DNA from: Candidatus Iainarchaeum sp.
GTDB taxonomy: Archaea > Iainarchaeota > Iainarchaeia > Iainarchaeales > GCA-2688035
DNA: 32,000 bases
Assembly (NCBI GenBank): GCA_028713935.1
Contig: JAQTNI010000007.1
Span: 5,262 to 37,261 of the forward strand
Reading direction: 5' to 3'
Numbering within the stretch: position 1 is the first letter of the stretch; every line of letters starts with the position of its first letter. The position numbers and the translations under genes are program-made. This document shows, in pieces, positions 6,804 to 16,623 of this stretch. A model generated the notes under the pieces. That model made no database searches. It saw only the letters and a program-made list of their open reading frames with translations, and was not told where the DNA came from.

Positions 6804-6866
6804 TTTTTTGCAGTTTTGCCAATCCCTTTTTATTAAATTTGGCGCATAATTATTTAGGTGTTTTTT

Positions 6867-7088
6867 ATGGAATTTGATGTTGTTTTTGAAAAGCAGAAGG
6901 AAGGTGGTTTTACTGTTTATGTTCCGGGCTTGCCTGGCTGCATTTCTGAAGGGGAAACAAAATTGGAAGCATTGAAAAATGTCAAAGAAGCAATTTCCCT
7001 TTATCTTGAAGAAAAGAATAAATCAGAAATAAGGCAATTATTGGATTCTGTCTCTATAGAAAAAGCCGCCGTGAAAATTCATGCCTAA
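6867..7088 (+). CDS. hicB: HicB-family antitoxin (UPF0150)
   Basis: MEFDVVFEKQKEGGFTVYVPGLPGCISEGETKLEALKNVKEAISLYLEE matches the HicB N-domain pattern. AGGTG SD upstream. 8-nt overlap with hicA. Confidence 0.8.
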   Translation: MEFDVVFEKQKEGGFTVYVPGLPGCISEGETKLEALKNVKEAISLYLEEKNKSEIRQLLDSVSIEKAAVKIHA

Positions 7089-7299
7089 ACTCTGGAATGT
7101 TTCTGCAAGAGAAGTTGTTAAAGTTTCTTCTCGGCTTGGTTTTGTTTTTGCAAGGCAAAAAGGCAGCCACATTATTCTGAAGCACAATGATGGCAGGCTT
7201 CTTGTAATCCCAAATCATGAAAAACTAAAAATTGGCACTTTGCTGCAGATAATAAAAGCCCTGGGAATCAGCAGGGAAGAATTTGAAAAATTGCTTTAA
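7081..7299 (+). CDS. hicA: HicA-family mRNA interferase toxin
   Basis: 72 aa. ..ARQKGSHIILKHNDGRLLVIPNHEKLKIGTLLQIIKALGIS.. is the typical HicA/YcfA pattern. Confidence 0.8.
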   Translation: MPKLWNVSAREVVKVSSRLGFVFARQKGSHIILKHNDGRLLVIPNHEKLKIGTLLQIIKALGISREEFEKLL

Positions 7300-7365
7300 C
7301 ACTATCTTTTTGTAAACCATGGTTTTTTATTAGCCAACAACCATTATCTTTTGAGAGGTGTTTTT

Positions 7366-7602
7366 ATGAAAAAAGTGATTGTTTATTCAACTGATACCTG
7401 CCCTTTCTGCACAATGGCAAAGGATTTCCTGAAAAGCAAAAAAATAAAATTTGAAGAATTCAATGTTGCTGAAAATGAGGCAAAGCTGCAGGAAATGCTG
7501 AAAAAATCTGGCCAGACAGGAGTGCCTGTAATTGACATTGCAGGAGAAATAATAACCGGCTTTGACAAGGAACGCATAGAAAATGCGCTTGGCCTGAAGT
7601 GA
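7366..7602 (+). CDS. glutaredoxin / NrdH-like redoxin
   Basis: 78 aa. MKKVIVYSTDTCPFCTMAKDFL.. carries a CPFC active site and GVPVI motif. GAGGTG SD sits 6 nt upstream. Confidence 0.85.
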   Translation: MKKVIVYSTDTCPFCTMAKDFLKSKKIKFEEFNVAENEAKLQEMLKKSGQTGVPVIDIAGEIITGFDKERIENALGLK

Positions 7603-7620: not shown

Positions 7621-7890
7621 ATGAATGCCGCTGAAAAACAAATTTTGGATGAAGTAAAGGCTTATGCAAGGAAAAACGGCTTCAGGATAAATCCTGACAG
7701 CAAAATAGTTGAAGCTGTTGTAAAGGGCCTTGCAAAAAACCTTGGAAGATATGGCAAAAAAATCTGCCCCTGCAGGGTTCCGACTGGCAAGGCAGAAGAC
7801 GATGAAAAGCTTGTCTGCCCCTGTGCTTTTCACATTGAAGAGATAAAAAAAACAGGCCACTGCAAATGCCGCCTTTTTTTCGCCAAATAA
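7621..7890 (+). CDS. ferredoxin:thioredoxin reductase catalytic-subunit-like protein (ferredoxin:disulfide reductase type)
   Basis: 89 aa with the FTR-catalytic cysteine pattern CPCR...CPCAFH...HCKCRLF. Confidence 0.8.
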   Translation: MNAAEKQILDEVKAYARKNGFRINPDSKIVEAVVKGLAKNLGRYGKKICPCRVPTGKAEDDEKLVCPCAFHIEEIKKTGHCKCRLFFAK

Positions 7891-8161: not shown

Positions 8162-10201
8162 ATGGTTCAAAAGTTTTTGGAGTCTGTCAGGAAGCGCGAT
8201 GGTTCAATTGCCCCTTTTGATGCCAACAGGGTTACTGAAGCTATTTTTTCCGCTGCAAAGGCTGTCGGCGGCACTGACAGGAAAATTGCTGAGCAATTAG
8301 GCGAAAAAGTAGTCCATTCCCTGAAGAAAAAATTTGGCACAAAAATCCCTGAAGTTGAGGAAATCCAGGATGCGATTGAAAAAGAGCTTATTGAGGCTGG
8401 CCATGCGAAAACAGCCAAGGCATTTATTCTTTACCGCACCAAAAGGGCTGAGCTGCGCGAAGCAAGCGCTTTTTTGAAAAAAATTTCCAGCATTGTTGAT
8501 GGTTATGTTTCCTGTTCTGATTGGCGTGTTTTGGAGAACAGCAATGCGGGCTATTCTCTTTCGGGAATGCAGGCCCATATTTCCGCTGCTGTTATTGCTG
8601 AATACACTTTGAGGAATATTTATCCTGAAGAAATTTCGAGTGCGCACAGGAACGGGGATTTTCATATTCATGATCTGGGAAATGGTGTTTTTTCAGGTTA
8701 TTGTGCTGGCTGGTCTCTTGGGCAATTGCTTGAGCTTGGCTTTAATGGTGTGCCTGGCAGAATTTCCGCAAAGCCGGTTAAGCATTTTAATGCTGCGCTT
8801 GGCCAGATAGTGAATTTTATGGGCACTTTGCAGAATGAATGGGCTGGTGCACAGGCTTTCAATAGCTTTGACACTTATCTTGCGCCTCTTGCAGCAAAGG
8901 ATAATCTTTCTTATAAGCAGATAAAGCAGTCTTTGCAGGAATTTATTTTTGCAACCAATGCAACAAGCAGATGGGGAAACCAGGTTCCTTTCACTAACAT
9001 TACAATGGACTGGACAGTTCCGGAGGACATGAAGGACGACCCTGTTCTTTATGGCGGGGAATACCTTGAGAATGAAACTTATGCTGTTTACCAGAAGCAA
9101 GTTGAGCAAATCAACAAGGCTTTTTTGGAAATAATGGCTGCAGGGGACATGCATGGAAGGGTTTTTACTTTTCCAATTCCAACTTATAATATTACAAGGG
9201 ATTTTGAATGGAATTCAGAAGCCGCAAACCTTTTGTTTGAAATGACTGCAAAATATGGAATTCCTTATTTCCAGAATTTTGTGAACAGTGCATTGAAGCC
9301 AGGCGATGTCAGGTCAATGTGCTGCCGCTTGCAGTTGAACCTGAAAGAACTGAAAAGCAAGACCGGCGGCTTGTTTGGCAGCGGTGACAAAACAGGCAGC
9401 ATTGGCGTTGTTACAATTAACATGCCAAAAATCGGTTATCTGGCAAAAGATGATTCTGATTTTTTTGAAAGGCTTGAGCAATTAATGTATCTTGCAAAGG
9501 AAAGCCTTGAAATAAAAAGAAAAGAGGTTTCAAAAAACCTTGAAAACGGGCTTTTGCCTTGGAGCAAGCGTTATTTGGGAACACTTGACTATCACTTTTC
9601 AACTATTGGGCTTGTTGGAATGAACGAAGCCTGCCTCAATTTTTTTGATGAAGGCATTGCAACAAAACAGGGAAGGGATTTTTCATTGAAAACACTTGAA
9701 TTCATGAGAAACAGGCTTCAGGAATTCCAGCAGGAAACAGGCCATATTTATAATCTGGAAGCTACTCCTGCAGAGGGCACTTCTTACAGGCTTGCAAGAA
9801 TTGACAAAAAGCTTTATCCTGAAATCAAGACAGCCGGAACAAAAGAATCTTATTACACCAATTCAACTCAATTGCCAGTGAATTTCACTGACGATATTTT
9901 TGAGGCTTTGCAGCACCAGGACGAATTGCAGTCCAAATACACTGGGGGCACTGTCCTGCATGGCTTTTTGGGAGAAGCCGTTTCAGATGCAGAGGCCTGC
10001 AAAAAGCTTGTGAAAAAAATTGCTTATTCTTTCAAGCTGCCGTATTACACTATCACTCCAACCTTTAGCATTTGCCCTGTTCATGGTTATATCAAGGGGG
10101 CGCATTTCAATTGCCCAGTTGAATTAAACGGCAACCAAGCAAACGGAGGTGAAACCCAATGGCAGTCTGCAACAGTAAAACTGAAGTCTATAGCAGAGTA
10201 G
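8162..10201 (+). CDS. nrdD: anaerobic (class III) ribonucleoside-triphosphate reductase NrdD, large fragment lacking the glycyl-radical motif
   Basis: N-terminal ATP-cone (VRKRDGSIAPFDANRVTEAI..) and NrdD core (..DVRSMCCRLQL.., ..PYYTITPTFSICPVHGYIKGAHFNCPV). After CPV (10112-10120) the frame no longer matches NrdD and runs 27 non-homologous codons to TAG. Confidence 0.9.
   Translation: MVQKFLESVRKRDGSIAPFDANRVTEAIFSAAKAVGGTDRKIAEQLGEKVVHSLKKKFGTKIPEVEEIQDAIEKELIEAGHAKTAKAFILYRTKRAELREASAFLKKISSIVDGYVSCSDWRVLENSNAGYSLSGMQAHISAAVIAEYTLRNIYPEEISSAHRNGDFHIHDLGNGVFSGYCAGWSLGQLLELGFNGVPGRISAKPVKHFNAALGQIVNFMGTLQNEWAGAQAFNSFDTYLAPLAAKDNLSYKQIKQSLQEFIFATNATSRWGNQVPFTNITMDWTVPEDMKDDPVLYGGEYLENETYAVYQKQVEQINKAFLEIMAAGDMHGRVFTFPIPTYNITRDFEWNSEAANLLFEMTAKYGIPYFQNFVNSALKPGDVRSMCCRLQLNLKELKSKTGGLFGSGDKTGSIGVVTINMPKIGYLAKDDSDFFERLEQLMYLAKESLEIKRKEVSKNLENGLLPWSKRYLGTLDYHFSTIGLVGMNEACLNFFDEGIATKQGRDFSLKTLEFMRNRLQEFQQETGHIYNLEATPAEGTSYRLARIDKKLYPEIKTAGTKESYYTNSTQLPVNFTDDIFEALQHQDELQSKYTGGTVLHGFLGEAVSDAEACKKLVKKIAYSFKLPYYTITPTFSICPVHGYIKGAHFNCPVELNGNQANGGETQWQSATVKLKSIAE
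10116..10162 (+). other. 47-nt intervening sequence inside nrdD (boundaries ambiguous within the CAGT repeat: start 10116-10120, end 10162-10166)
   Basis: Deleting 47 nt joins TGC CCA GT|C TGC AAC AGT AAA ACT GAA GTC TAT AGC AGA GTA GTC GGC TAT. This reads CPVCNSKTEVYSRVVGY, the canonical NrdD zinc-ribbon and glycyl-radical C-terminus in one frame. Confidence 0.8.
10145..10152 (+). promoter_or_regulatory. Shine-Dalgarno GGAGGTGA, 6 nt upstream of ATG 10159
   Basis: Perfect 8-mer of the GGAGGTGA type. Other genes in this window use GGTG-type SDs at similar spacing (7366, 11411, 13801, 15540). Confidence 0.7.
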
Positions 10202-10308
10202 TCGGCTATTTAAGGCCTGTCCAGGCATGGAATGCAGGAAAACAGGAAGAATTCAGGGACAGAAAAACCTTTTCAGAAGCAAAGGCACTTGAAAAATGCA
10301 AGGAATAA
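10159..10308 (+). CDS. 49-aa ORF encoding the NrdD glycyl-radical C-terminal motif
   Basis: MAVCNSKTEVYSRVVGYLRPVQAWNAGKQEEFRDRKTFSEAKALEKCKE. RVVGYLRPVxxWNxGKxxEFxxR is the class III RNR glycyl-radical signature. It lies in the +2 frame relative to the large ORF and is below the ORF-track size cutoff. Confidence 0.8.
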   Translation: MAVCNSKTEVYSRVVGYLRPVQAWNAGKQEEFRDRKTFSEAKALEKCKE

Positions 10309-10349: not shown

Positions 10350-11063
10350 TTGGGTGTTTGTTTGCCGCTTGTTTTTAAGGGATTGCAGAAAACCACTTTG
10401 ATTGATTTTCCTGGGCAGATTGCCTGCACTTTTTTCCTGCCAAAATGCAATTTCAAATGCGGTTTTTGTTATAACCCAAACCTTGTTTTTGATGAGGAAA
10501 CAGGCACAAGAATTTCCGAAAAAGAGGCTCTTGCTTTTCTTGATGAAAGAAAAAACTTTTTGGACGGGGTATGCATTTCCGGCGGAGAGCCCACTCTGCA
10601 TCCAGGCCTTCCGGAATTTTGTGCAAAAATCAAGGAAAAAGGCCTGCTTGTGAAGCTTGATACGAATGGTTCAAATCCTGAAATGTTGAAAAGCCTGATT
10701 GAAAAAAATCTTGTTGATTTTGTTGCAATGGACATCAAGGCTTCAAAGGAAAAATATTCCCTTGTTTGCGGGGCAAAAATTGATTTGGAAAAAATTTCCG
10801 AAAGCATTGGACTCATAAGAAAATCCGGAATTGATTATGAATTCAGGGCAACTGTTGTGCCATTGCTTGAAGAAAAAGACTTGTTGGAAATTGGCGAATG
10901 GCTTAAGGGAAGCAAAAAATTTGTTTTGCAGCAGTTCCACAATGAAATGCCGCTTCTTGGAAAAAACCTGCAAAAGCTTTCCCCTTATTCTCCTGAACAA
11001 TTAAAAAAATTTGCGGAAAAATTAAAGCCTTTTTTTGGAAAAATTGAAGTAAGGGGAATTTAG
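10350..11063 (+). CDS. nrdG: anaerobic ribonucleotide reductase activating protein (radical SAM) NrdG
   Basis: CNFKCGFCYN CxxxCxxC radical-SAM motif preceded by LIDFPGQIACTFFL. GGEPTL motif present. The start (TTG at 10350, 10362 or 10383) is uncertain. Confidence 0.85.
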   Translation: MGVCLPLVFKGLQKTTLIDFPGQIACTFFLPKCNFKCGFCYNPNLVFDEETGTRISEKEALAFLDERKNFLDGVCISGGEPTLHPGLPEFCAKIKEKGLLVKLDTNGSNPEMLKSLIEKNLVDFVAMDIKASKEKYSLVCGAKIDLEKISESIGLIRKSGIDYEFRATVVPLLEEKDLLEIGEWLKGSKKFVLQQFHNEMPLLGKNLQKLSPYSPEQLKKFAEKLKPFFGKIEVRGI

Positions 11064-11127
11064 CTGAAAACAAGGCTTTTTTAAGGTTCTGGAACAATTT
11101 TTTATGTGGTTTTATGCCTTCTAAAAA

Positions 11128-11180
11128 GCCTTTTCTTAAAAAGAAAAGCCTTGGGAAAAGAAAAGCAAATGAAAAGCAGG
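11128..11180 (-). repeat. hairpin-repeat family 1, copy d (reverse orientation)
   Basis: Plus strand reads CTTTTCT-taaaa-AGAAAAG then CCTTGGGAAAAGAAAAG. This is the reverse complement of the core CTTTTC-CCAAGG-CTTTTC plus hairpin seen at 16526, 25587 and 28434. Confidence 0.7.
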
Positions 11181-11200
11181 CTGGGCTTGTTACTGGGGAA

Positions 11201-11398
11201 ATGACTTTTGCAGAGCTTACAAGCAGGCATCCTGCTGCTATTCCAATTCTTTTTGAATATGGCTTGCACTGCATTGGCTGCCATGTTTCTGCTTTGGAGA
11301 CAATTGAACAGGGCGCTCTGGCCCACGGCCTGTCAGAAGAGCAATTAAAAGAAATGCTTGGAAAAATCAATGGTGTTTCAAAAACTTCAAAAAATTAG
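11201..11398 (+). CDS. DUF1858-type redox-disulfide (CxxC) small protein
   Basis: MTFAELTSRHPAAIPILFEYGLHCIGCHVSALETIEQGALAHGL.. matches the hybrid-cluster-protein-associated redox disulfide domain pattern. The listed ORF start 11114 runs through repeat copy d and is probably not coding. Confidence 0.65.
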   Translation: MTFAELTSRHPAAIPILFEYGLHCIGCHVSALETIEQGALAHGLSEEQLKEMLGKINGVSKTSKN

Positions 11399-11410
11399 CA
11401 AGGTGGTTCA

Positions 11411-11590
11411 ATGGAAAGGCCCTATATTGATTATGGAAAATGCAATGGCTGCGGGACATGCATAAATGTCTGCCCTGTAAGCGTTTTTGCAAAGGAAGCC
11501 AAGAAAACAGTTGTAAAAAACCCCAGCGAGTGCATTCAATGCAGGGCTTGCGAAGCGAGCTGTCCGCAGAAGGCAATTCAGGTAAAGTAA
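11411..11590 (+). CDS. 4Fe-4S dicluster ferredoxin (59 aa, below ORF-track cutoff)
   Basis: MERPYIDYGKCNGCGTCINVCPVSVFAKEAKKTVVKNPSECIQCRACEASCPQKAIQVK has two CxxCxxCxxxCP motifs. AGGTGG SD sits 5-6 nt upstream. Confidence 0.8.
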   Translation: MERPYIDYGKCNGCGTCINVCPVSVFAKEAKKTVVKNPSECIQCRACEASCPQKAIQVK

Positions 11591-11642
11591 CTGATTTATT
11601 GTGGAATCAGAAGGCATTAGCGGTTTTATTAAGATTCTAGAG

Positions 11643-11697
11643 TTTCTTTCTTTTGGCAACTTACATTTTCTTTCTTTTTCAAAGAAAGAAAAGGCAG
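11643..11697 (-). repeat. composite repeat family 2, copy A (simple form)
   Basis: Reverse complement reads CTGCCTTTTCTTTCTT-tgaaa-AAGAAAGAAAATGTAAGTTGCCAAAAGAAAGAAA. This is near-identical to the two arms of the element at 30168-30274. Confidence 0.75.
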
Positions 11698-11711
11698 GTT
11701 TAGTGTAATGC

Positions 11712-12986
11712 ATGCATGAAATTTTTTTTACTGCGCTTGGTGGAGCCAAAGAAGTTGGCAAAAGCTCTCTTTTAATTGATTATGGCGAAAAAATCCTTTT
11801 TGACAGGGGAGTAAAATTAAATGCAAGGAAAACAGAGTATCCCTTGCCTGTCACAACAAATCTTGATGCAGTTATAATTTCACATGCACATTTGGACCAT
11901 AGCGGAAGCCTGCCGCACCTGTTTTTGCAGTCCAATGTAATAAGCTTTTTGACTGTTTCAACTCTTGACCTTGCAAAATTGCTCTGGTTTGACTCTTTGA
12001 AAATCGCAGGCTTGGAGTCAATGGCTCCTGAATGGACAAAAGAAGAAATTCATAAGGCTGAAAAATTTTCTTTTCCGACCCATTACAAAAAAAATATTCA
12101 GATAACAAAAGAAGCGCATCTCGAGTTTTTTGATGCGGGGCATATTCTTGGAAGCGCTATTTCTGTGCTTTCGCTTAAGCGCCAGAAAATTGTTTATACT
12201 GGGGATTTCAAGTTTTTGGAAACAAGGCTTCATCATGGCGCAGACTTAAGCAGGATTAAAAACACTGATATCCTGATAACAGAGTCAACTTATGGAGACA
12301 GGGAACATCCTCCAAGAAAAGAAGTTGAAAAGCTTTTTGTTGAAAAAGTTGTGGACACTCTTGATAAAGGCGGGCATGTTCTTGTGCCTGCTTTTGCAAT
12401 TGGCAGGAGCCAGGAAATAATTGACATCTTGCATGAATACAAAATCGGCGCGCCTGTTTTTTTTGACGGAATGGGCCAAAAGGCAGCAAAAATAATGCTT
12501 GACCATCCAGACCTGCTTAAAGATGCGCGTTTTCTAAGGAAAGCGCTTTCAAATGCAATCTGGGTCAGGAATCCTTCTTTCAGGAAAAAAGCCTTGAAAG
12601 AGCCGAGCGTTATTGTTACAACTGCTGGCATGCTTTCCGGAGGCCCGGTTGGTTATTACCTGAAAGAAATTTACAAGAACAGTGACAGTGCTGTTCTTCT
12701 CACTGGCTATCAGGTTGAGGGAACTCCTGGCAGGCAGTTGCTTGAAACAGGCAAAATTGAGGTTGATGGTTCCCTTCTTGATGTTGCCGCCCATGTTGAA
12801 AAATTTGATTTTTCAGCGCATGCTGACCAGGCTGAAAGCATCCAGGCAATAAGAAAGCTTTCGCCAAAAAAAATTGTCCTTGTCCATGGTGATGCAGAAG
12901 TGATGCCTGTTTTTAAAAAGAAAATACTGGAAGAAACAGGCATTGAAACAGTTGTTCCAAGCATTGGCGAAAGAATAAAATTGTAG
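11712..12986 (+). CDS. beta-CASP metallo-beta-lactamase ribonuclease (aCPSF2-like, no KH domains)
   Basis: 424 aa. HAHLDHSG (HxHxDH), DAGHILGSA, TGDFK, ESTYG, GRSQE, ..FSAHADQ.. and VHGD motifs appear in beta-CASP order. Confidence 0.85.
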   Translation: MHEIFFTALGGAKEVGKSSLLIDYGEKILFDRGVKLNARKTEYPLPVTTNLDAVIISHAHLDHSGSLPHLFLQSNVISFLTVSTLDLAKLLWFDSLKIAGLESMAPEWTKEEIHKAEKFSFPTHYKKNIQITKEAHLEFFDAGHILGSAISVLSLKRQKIVYTGDFKFLETRLHHGADLSRIKNTDILITESTYGDREHPPRKEVEKLFVEKVVDTLDKGGHVLVPAFAIGRSQEIIDILHEYKIGAPVFFDGMGQKAAKIMLDHPDLLKDARFLRKALSNAIWVRNPSFRKKALKEPSVIVTTAGMLSGGPVGYYLKEIYKNSDSAVLLTGYQVEGTPGRQLLETGKIEVDGSLLDVAAHVEKFDFSAHADQAESIQAIRKLSPKKIVLVHGDAEVMPVFKKKILEETGIETVVPSIGERIKL

Positions 12987-16437: not shown

Positions 16438-16623
16438 CGGACCCGGTGGGATTTGAACCCACGACCCCCGCCTCGCTCCAGCTTTTTTTAATAAAAAACA
16501 ATCTGGGAATTTTTTTTAACAAAACCAGTTTTTCGAAGAAAAACTGCTCTTTTCCCAGGGCTTTTCTCTTCAGAGAAAAGGCCTTAGGAGTGCGGTGCCC
16601 TATCCAGGCTAGGCTACAGGTCC
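16438..16623 (-). tRNA. tRNA-Arg (anticodon CCU) with a 111-nt intron at the canonical 37/38 position
   Basis: Acceptor GGACCUG/CGGGUCC, D arm GCCU-AGCCUGGAUA-GGGC, anticodon loop CUCCUAA (CCU at 16588-16586), T arm GUGGG-UUCAAAU-CCCAC. Intron is 16474-16584. BHB: central helix CUCC (16590-16587)/GGAG (16479-16476), with 3-nt bulges cut after the second nucleotide. One A31-G39 mismatch. No encoded CCA. Confidence 0.8.
16526..16580 (+). repeat. hairpin-repeat family 1, copy a (inside the tRNA-Arg intron, antisense to the tRNA)
   Basis: CAGTTTTTC-gaa-GAAAAACTG hairpin, core CTCTTTTCCCAGGG, then hairpin CTTTTCTC-ttca-GAGAAAAG. Confidence 0.7.

Follow-up and report, generated by a model that had tools for sequence, protein, structure and literature searches.

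A probable two-polypeptide class III ribonucleotide reductase in Candidatus Iainarchaeum, with the glycyl radical predicted on a 49-residue subunit

In a stretch of 32,000 nucleotides from the archaeon Candidatus Iainarchaeum sp. (Iainarchaeota/Diapherotrites, probably DPANN; assembly GCA_028713935.1, contig JAQTNI010000007.1, positions 5,262 to 37,261; the whole stretch is referred to below as the window), the nrdD gene of a class III ribonucleotide reductase (RNR) is found as two overlapping open reading frames (ORFs). ORF1 encodes the large catalytic part, while ORF2, a frame of only 49 codons, carries the glycyl-radical motif. The locus very probably encodes a genuine class III RNR made up of two polypeptides. 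The observations that carry this reading are the two ORFs themselves and their conservation, the selection acting on ORF2, its conserved start signals, the gene order nrdD, small ORF, nrdG, and the recurrence of the arrangement across lineages. The window locus is an ordinary member of a large group that is present in the databases and apparently unrecognised in the literature. A separately translated 49-aa glycyl-radical peptide, with a zinc site lying across two chains, had already been put forward in an initial annotation of this DNA, and it is the explanation best supported by the comparative sequence data. The positions given there for the ORFs, the zinc knuckle, the Shine-Dalgarno (SD) sequence and the ATG were all correct when the sequence was read again.

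The two reading frames and their start signals

ORF1 scores 1014 bits against the NCBIfam model NF006126 (cut-off 548) over profile positions 3-646 of 684, with the final ~38 positions missing, and 482 bits against TIGR02487 (cut-off 326), which places it by sequence among the class III RNRs with ATP-cone and NRDD barrel. The finger loop contains the thiyl-radical cysteine expected of this class, as C387/C388 in RSMCCRLQ are invariant among 34 and among 22 aligned homologues. The glycyl-radical motif RVxGY, however, is not on this barrel polypeptide: RVVGY sits on ORF2, in a different frame. The C-terminal end of ORF1 reads FNCPVELNGNQANGGETQWQSATVKLKSIAE (in a longer stretch, SICPVHGYIKGAHFNCPVELNGNQANGGETQWQSATVKLKSIAE), and the stop codon lies 28 codons past the third zinc ligand. 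By alignment of an intact relative to the NrdD of T. maritima, with the zinc site as described in PMC4493059, ORF1 holds Cys638 (10073-75), His641 (10082-84) and Cys651 (10112-14), all three in invariant alignment columns. The last of these opens the triplets TGC-CCA-GTT (Cys651-Pro-Val) at 10112-10120.

ORF2, with the sequence MAVCNSKTEVYSRVVGYLRPVQAWNAGKQEEFRDRKTFSEAKALEKCKE and the N-terminal part MAVCNSKTEVYSRVVGYLRPV, is read in frame -1 with respect to ORF1, a frame that opens only at 10153, past a TGA at 10150-10152. It matches the final ~35 positions of five NrdD models in the NCBIfam scan, under the cut-off; that collection holds no model dedicated to the small ORF. The precomputed Pfam matches of ORF2 and its relatives are to PF13597 (NRDD) only, and none is to the C-terminus of pyruvate formate-lyase (PFL; Gly_radical). 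The radical is predicted at Gly16 (10204-06) of the RVVGY motif. A cysteine at position 3-4 is kept in all close small ORFs, which begin with MAVC, MSVC, MASC, MSKC, MPKC or MKC, and the conserved cysteine of ORF2 aligns with the fourth zinc ligand of T. maritima NrdD. Cys4 of ORF2 (10168-70) would be this fourth ligand, next to C638, H641 and C651 on ORF1, and the predicted metal-binding site, Zn(Cys3His), would then be divided between two chains.

The start signal GGAGGTGA-N6-ATG of ORF2 is contained in the final 57 nt of ORF1. The octamer is the sole one of its kind in the 32-kb window, and 6-mer versions of it stand 5 nt before the ATG of two other genes, at 7355 and 13790. The close relatives of the pair have the same layout. 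At 92% (L161/L162, a JGI metagenome and an NCBI metagenome-assembled genome), 84% (L081, a 98-kb JGI contig) and 81% (L163, a Logan SRA assembly) identity in ORF1, all of them have a 679/678-aa and a 49-aa frame, a 43-nt overlap and GGAGGTG[AG]-N6-ATG, as in the window. The comparison of related genomes that the initial annotation had called for thus gives the same geometry in four independent assemblies, with no uninterrupted gene among these, and both ORFs of the pair have already been called separately by public gene callers. In a further relative (L164), ORF2 is 92% identical to that of the window and the ORF1 stop falls 27 nt before the ATG, with AGAGGTGG kept after that stop. Because this sequence persists past the ORF1 stop, the start signals track ORF2 and not the Gly-Gly codons of ORF1.

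Purifying selection on ORF2 is strong. Pairwise ratios of nonsynonymous to synonymous substitution (dN/dS) are 0.03-0.23 in its frame, with synonymous sites near saturation, as against ~1-7 in the remaining two frames, and the variable sites of five sequences are distributed over codon positions 1/2/3 as 13/12/36. The ORF1 tail, QWQSATVKLKSIAE, is conserved merely as a shadow of the ORF2 codons. The same geometry in independent assemblies and the selection on ORF2 together exclude an artefact or a decaying pseudogene.

The stretch between the third and the fourth ligand had been described as a 47-nt insertion bearing the start signals of ORF2, at which homology to NrdD would end exactly after Cys-Pro-Val. 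The comparison with uninterrupted relatives does not bear this out. In T. maritima the knuckle reads CPV-CGKAKVDEYMRIVGY (CPVCGKAK), while an intact relative (P0039) has CPIETNGGDNVKCGKRTEVYSRVVGY, that is, 9 additional residues within the CPxC zinc knuckle, and further intact relatives have a homologous loop of 8-10 aa, frequently with Gly-Gly. The ELNGNQANGGE of the window aligns with this in-frame loop (CPIETNGGDNVKC, CPVEVGGGEKMAKC). In P0062/L166, one of the relatives with an unbroken gene, the DNA runs tgc cca gtt gaa gtt gga ggg ggt gaa aaa ATG gca aaa tgc and encodes CPVEVGGGEKMAKC; it thus holds in frame a similar SD-like-plus-ATG motif, GGGGGTGA-aaa-ATG, translated as GGGEKMAKC. The stretch differs by 3 nt between relatives (47 vs 44 nt). 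Deleting 10116-10162 does restore a canonical C-terminus, as had been noted: it yields CPVCNSKTEVYSRVVGY, in accord with the canonical knuckle. Since relatives do not share the CAGT direct repeat at the borders, nothing points to a discrete inserted element. Judged by this alignment, the 47 nt are the coding sequence of a clade-specific zinc-knuckle loop, and the gene boundary lies within that loop in the sub-lineage of the window.

Features of the class III RNR locus (positions in the window)
Feature	Position	Strand	Basis or remark
Class III ribonucleotide reductase operon		+	redoxin gene, FtrB-like gene, nrdD, 49-aa ORF, nrdG
Glutaredoxin/NrdH-like gene	7351-7602	+	listed ORF; ATG at 7366 likely the true start; TIGR02196, 92.8 bits
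Ferredoxin:thioredoxin-reductase-B-like (FtrB-like) gene	7621-7890	+	NCBIfam scan
nrdD large subunit, ORF1, 679 aa	8162..10201	+	ATP-cone and class III RNR barrel; NF006126
Zinc ligands 1-3 on ORF1, within CPVHGYIKGAHFNCP	10073..10114	+	alignment to T. maritima NrdD (4COI/4U3E)
Clade-specific loop in CPxC knuckle, ELNGNQANGGETQ in ORF1 frame	10121..10158	+	homologous loop translated in intact relatives
Shine-Dalgarno-like GGAGGTGA for ORF2, within ORF1 Gly-Gly-Glu codons	10145..10152	+	6 nt before ATG 10159
Overlap of ORF1 (frame 0) and ORF2 (frame -1), 43 nt	10159..10201	+	ORF coordinates
ORF2, predicted 49-aa glycyl-radical subunit	10159..10308	+	final ~35 positions of NrdD profiles
nrdG, radical-SAM activase	10350..11063	+	TIGR02495 NrdG2, 206 bits vs cut-off 131

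A structure model was computed with AlphaFold2 for ORF1 (residues 1-666) joined to ORF2 as one chain, on an alignment of 21 intact relatives. It has the class III RNR fold, with a mean predicted local distance difference test (pLDDT) of 76.8 and a predicted template modelling score (pTM) of 0.73. The top Foldseek matches, from S. thermophilus, P. copri, T. maritima and T4 NrdD, are all class III RNRs (9D3X, 8P23, also T. maritima 4COJ). The junction residues 658-664 have a pLDDT <50, which is consistent with a flexible surface loop that would tolerate a chain break and is supportive, not proof, of assembly in trans.

From the comparison of sequences, independent initiation of ORF2, assembly of the two chains in trans and a zinc site between them can be combined into a likely course of events. 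From ORF1 would come the ATP-cone, zinc ligands 1-3 and the catalytic barrel, finger-loop cysteines included, while ORF2, started from its own GGAGGTGA-N6-ATG, would contribute the fourth ligand, Cys4, and the glycyl-radical loop RVVG16Y. The peptide would dock non-covalently in the barrel, at the place of the C-terminal glycyl domain of a one-piece NrdD, and in the clade of the window a shared Zn(Cys3His) site could clasp it to the large subunit. NrdG, the product of the neighbouring gene, would install the radical on Gly16. Through their 43-nt overlap, the translation of ORF2 is probably coupled to that of ORF1. The split itself probably goes back to a lineage-specific surface loop by which the CPxC knuckle had been enlarged, and in which an internal SD sequence and ATG would make a frame-breaking indel tolerable.

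Split and uninterrupted nrdD genes in other genomes

Related loci were surveyed in a GTDB set (80 genomes with relatives, 71 loci classifiable) and in a metagenome set (80 loci, 72 classifiable). The gene is split in 39 loci and intact in 32 of the first set, and split in 23 and intact in 49 of the second; for the combined related loci the count is 63 split out of 142. The split GTDB loci include Iainarchaeum, Methanosarcinales, Margulisbacteria, Patescibacteria, Acidobacteria, Coriobacteriia, Burkholderiales, Alphaproteobacteria and Pseudomonas. Within the metagenome set, the start of ORF2 ranges from 43 nt within ORF1 to 166 nt downstream of it, and the frame of the two ORFs relative to each other is 0, +1 and -1 in 6, 10 and 7 split loci, respectively. 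As all frame relations and gaps occur, only ordinary independent initiation of a second gene fits, whereas frameshifting, bypass and splicing do not. An SD-like tetramer is present at -18 to -4 of the ORF2 start in 78% of the 63 split loci, compared with 18% of background 15-mers, and an ORF with the CxxxCxxC radical-SAM motif (nrdG) follows immediately 3' of the small ORF in 55 of 60. The split falls after a complete CPxC in 39 of the 63 loci and in or after a loop replacing CPxC in the other 24. On a rough neighbour-joining tree at least 16 transitions between the split and the intact state are required. The two-gene form of NrdD, with its radical loop in trans, is therefore common and has evolved repeatedly.

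The arrangement is by no means peculiar to this locus. Of the 120 closest NrdD homologues, 96 are without a glycyl motif and end at a median of 20 aa past the third cysteine, and stand-alone small ORFs number in the thousands. A word-index search with ORF2 of the window gave 109 stand-alone proteins of 33-80 aa, and one with a Pseudomonas-type small ORF gave 1624 clusters, of which the 120 listed are all 48-91 aa long. An exhaustive phmmer scan of 1.84 billion representatives returned 3101 matches; the best 150 (50%-identity representatives) are all 42-236 aa, and among the 149 best matches that were read, 137 are of <=100 aa and 145 start with Met. In RefSeq such small ORFs are annotated in genomes of cultured bacteria, on large contigs (up to ~7 Mb) of P. 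chlororaphis, P. fluorescens, P. putida, P. mucidolens and Stutzerimonas, under the names 'anaerobic ribonucleoside-triphosphate reductase', 'oxidoreductase' or 'hypothetical protein'.

The full-text literature searched, the coverage of which is incomplete so that subscription papers may mention it, holds no description of a split NrdD or of a trans glycyl-radical domain for an RNR, in agreement with the initial annotation, which knew of none. In the RNRdb paper (PMC2795772), class III is given as alpha2 with the Gly radical in alpha, and in large RNR phylogeny papers (PMC9669993) it is split NrdJ, not split NrdD, that is treated. Reviews up to June 2026 (PMC13450708) name formate lyases (PFL) as the sole enzymes with a spare-part or autonomous glycyl-radical protein, and raise the question whether other glycyl radical enzymes possess one.

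Several loci of the survey have particularities of their own. In one lineage (L090 and L092 with a gap of 0, L084, L085 and L096 with a gap of 1), ORF1 ends in FGVKTGG on gggtggtTAG/TGA and the ATG of ORF2 follows 0-1 nt on, with the terminal Gly-Gly codons doubling as SD sequence (GGGTGGT); in L090 and L092 both ORFs are in one frame with a TAG alone between them. In Margulisbacteria-type pairs (L017, L144, L148, L155, L159; P0163-P0168) the ORF1 tail (e.g. CPKCKEEKVEKLQNQILELEEKLKEENSEC, up to the stop) and the ORF2 N-terminus (e.g. VSVEQLNAKIAVLKNEIDSVRGTECEVYARIVGY) are both heptad-repeat-like helices, which suggests a coiled-coil or helical-hairpin tether instead of a shared zinc site. 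In P0066 (752 aa, on a 23-kb Logan contig), an unsplit NrdD, two glycyl-radical modules that have diverged from each other stand in tandem, TEIFSRVVGYYRPVQNWNEGKKEEFRDRKAF and then SEVFSRVVGYYRPVQNWNKGKKEEFSERKTY; the protein resembles an intact NrdD fused to an additional small-subunit copy and hints that spare domain copies exist. Six close NrdD large subunits (P0024, P0037, P0038, P0043, P0047, P0078) have a length of 1071-1113 aa, ~400 aa longer, and no glycyl motif, and intein Pfam domains are found in P0024, P0038, P0043, P0047 and P0078 (PF14890; PF14528 in P0078). Intein-bearing and split states therefore co-occur. Finally, four intact genes (L037, L048, L050, L077) are nested in an otherwise split Proteobacteria-type clade and have long, poorly conserved linkers, e.g. 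CPSCDEEKTVAIVRAQEARTGEAVARETVALAEDQRQRCEVWTRVMGY; these look like secondary re-fusions of two genes.

Alternative explanations of the interrupted frame

The two ORFs could also be joined at the level of translation. Programmed -1 frameshifting in the overlap would give one fused NrdD and make initiation at ORF2 irrelevant or minor. ORF2 indeed lies in the -1 frame with a 43-nt overlap, in which there is a slippery A_AAA_C (10177-10181), and as SD-like sequences act as stimulators upstream of frameshift sites, for example in dnaX, GGAGGTGA could act likewise. However, no X_XXY_YYZ heptamer occurs in frame with ORF1 from 10153 to 10198, the strictly conserved Cys4 would be bypassed if the ribosome slipped at A_AAA, and a four-sequence consensus fold has neither a conserved downstream structure nor covarying pairs. 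Furthermore, relatives use the frames 0, +1 and -1 with gaps up to 166 nt, and in L164 ORF1 ends before the ATG, so that no single recoding mechanism explains the family. On the absence of a heptamer and the variable frame relation, -1 frameshifting was rejected as the main mechanism, and we consider it very unlikely. That the 47 nt are spliced out as an archaeal bulge-helix-bulge (BHB) mRNA intron, or bypassed in the manner of T4 gene 60 from GTT 10118 to GTC 10165, so that CPVCNSK is restored, is hardly credible. The host does splice BHB-type introns (tRNA at 16438-16623, with a ~115-nt intron), which had prompted the intron reading, and removal of the 47 nt restores the canonical knuckle. 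Yet folds of 10080-10200 and of 10100-10180 have no helix that pairs the junctions and are less stable than shuffled sequences (z = +0.5 and +1.6), and the consensus fold of four sequences contains 0 compensatory pairs; the BHB intron was rejected for want of such a helix at the nrdD junctions and of covariation. As for bypass, the codon after take-off is GAA and not a stop, take-off GTT and landing GTC are unmatched, L081 and L163 have Ala instead of Val at the landing site, and the CAGT repeat is not conserved; with take-off stop, matched codons and a stable or conserved hairpin all absent, this candidate too was set aside. The supposed insert is, moreover, homologous to a loop that intact relatives translate, and neither excision nor bypass is possible for split relatives with real intergenic gaps and an SD sequence of their own.

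In a single sequence, one indel in the coding loop of a one-piece nrdD would look identical to what is found here, whether by recent pseudogenisation or by an assembly or sequencing error. The probability of this is close to nil, as the structure is identical in four independent assemblies that are 8-19% divergent, both ORFs are under purifying selection, the nrdG and redoxin genes are intact, SD sequence and start codon are kept among relatives, and the split recurs in hundreds of further lineages. Artefact and pseudogene were rejected on the independent assemblies and the dN/dS values. All four alternatives that the initial annotation had offered, RNA-level excision, bypass, pseudogenisation and assembly artefact, are thus contradicted by the comparative data.

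Some points weigh against the two-polypeptide enzyme itself. Besides ORF2, two genes in the window are led by an SD sequence, and independent initiation at ORF2 is a prediction from such sequence signals. It is possible that ribosomes slip by -1 at a low level at gtA_AAA_Ctg (10177-10181) and so fuse the frames. The zinc site spanning two chains is likewise a prediction, and the AlphaFold2 model is of a single fused chain. In the literature examined, no expression, proteomic or biochemical evidence for any split NrdD was found.

Genomic context, known systems and significance

The presence of the nrdG activase gene alongside nrdD, assigned by its TIGR02495 score, agrees with a class III RNR. 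An NrdH-like redoxin gene and a gene for a ferredoxin:thioredoxin reductase (FTR)-like protein stand directly upstream of nrdD, both in the window and in the 92% identical L161, where Pfam Glutaredoxin and FeThRed_B genes form the same operon layout. For the FtrB-like gene of the window the top NCBIfam match is the selenoprotein FtrB family, with a score far under the cut-off of that family. The NrdD3 subtype depends on a redoxin and a ferredoxin-disulfide reductase, as reported for M. barkeri. Because glutaredoxin/NrdH-like and FtrB-like genes precede nrdD, the order suggests that the class III RNR of the window is redoxin-dependent (NrdD3-like) and not formate-dependent.

Directly 5' of the nrd operon, at 6858-7299 (+), lie overlapping small ORFs of 76 aa and 72 aa that resemble a HicB-like antitoxin and a HicA-like toxin, and L161 has a HicB_lk_antitox Pfam match at the equivalent position. 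On the 3' side of nrdG, at 11114-12986 (+), follow a DUF1858 protein, a small 2x[4Fe-4S]-type ferredoxin (CxxCxxCxxxCP twice) and a beta-CASP/metallo-beta-lactamase RNase, an order common to L162. An Rfam scan of the window gave two tRNAs only, with no match at the nrdD junction. One of these genes, at 16438-16623 (-), matches the model from end to end (39.3 bits), has a ~115-nt insertion in the anticodon arm and was missed by ARAGORN. It probably encodes tRNA-Arg(CCU) and contains a large intron with strong structure (fold z = -4.2); this intron-bearing tRNA identifies the genome as that of an archaeon in which BHB splicing is active.

With the one-piece NrdD of T4, T. maritima, P. copri and E. 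coli, the window enzyme has in common the family, the fold, the finger loop, a predicted zinc ribbon, the RVxGY loop and the NrdG partner. To our knowledge, the zinc ribbon and the glycyl loop form the covalent C-terminus of the alpha chain in all class III RNRs that have been solved or characterised. The nearest functional counterpart, to which the initial annotation had likened ORF2, is GrcA/YfiD, or Y06I of T4, the autonomous glycyl-radical spare part of PFL (PMC13450708). The likeness holds insofar as ORF2, too, is a small stand-alone protein related to the C-terminal glycyl-radical part of the enzyme it serves, one that presumably receives its radical from the cognate radical-SAM activase and takes its place in the barrel of the large protein in trans. 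It does not extend to the partner: the PFL served by GrcA keeps a glycyl-radical domain of its own, which GrcA replaces after O2 cleavage, whereas ORF1 has none, and the ORF2 peptide would therefore be an obligate subunit and not a spare. ORF2 is furthermore homologous to the C-terminus of NrdD (PF13597) instead of PFL, is encoded in the operon, overlaps nrdD and adds a predicted zinc ligand.

Another division of an RNR is known from P. aeruginosa, in which the catalytic chain of the class II enzyme, NrdJa/NrdJb, is divided into two adjacent genes (PMC9669993, PMC4860495). Here too the C-terminal zinc-finger part is on the second polypeptide. In contrast to ORF2, NrdJb is a sizeable folded protein with a reducing Cys pair, of a B12-dependent class, and the NrdJ split leaves the radical site with the barrel. 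The class I RNR (NrdA/NrdB) offers a functional parallel, in that a stable radical resides on a polypeptide apart from the substrate-binding one. NrdB is a ferritin-fold metalloprotein with a tyrosyl or metal radical and long-distance transfer, whereas ORF2 is unrelated to it and its radical residue is predicted within the active site. Split nrdD genes of phages (group I introns, homing endonucleases) and the T4 gene 60 bypass (PMC3653736) resemble the window locus in that the nrdD frame is broken near a conserved motif, and the 47-nt and 50-nt gaps are superficially alike. Unlike these, the window locus is without intron, intein, endonuclease or bypass signal, and its interruption is simply the border between two genes, marked by start signals of its own.

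One may speculate further, although with clearly less confidence than for the two-gene enzyme, that a large share of class III RNRs, from DPANN archaea to cultured Pseudomonas, keeps the glycyl radical on an exchangeable subunit of ~50 aa. This subunit would be activated by NrdG and, after O2 cleavage at the radical glycine, resynthesised and re-inserted, with an inter-chain zinc holding the peptide in the clade of the window. The radical peptide would then be a cheap consumable, and the inter-chain zinc site a possible assembly or redox checkpoint. It would be the first spare-part logic outside the formate lyases, and an obligate instead of an emergency one.

The finding bears on annotation, as the large subunits seem 'complete' while the small ORFs carry varying names or are listed as hypothetical, and on RNR phylogenies that count the C-terminus as part of alpha. 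It also bears on how the glycyl-radical domain exits the barrel to reach the activase, and on the repair of oxygen damage in microaerophiles and biofilm pathogens. Within the split group, the unusual trait of the window member is the predicted division of its zinc site between the chains. Since the two-gene NrdD also occurs in genetically tractable bacteria (Pseudomonas, Stutzerimonas), the question of autonomous radical proteins other than that of PFL becomes testable.

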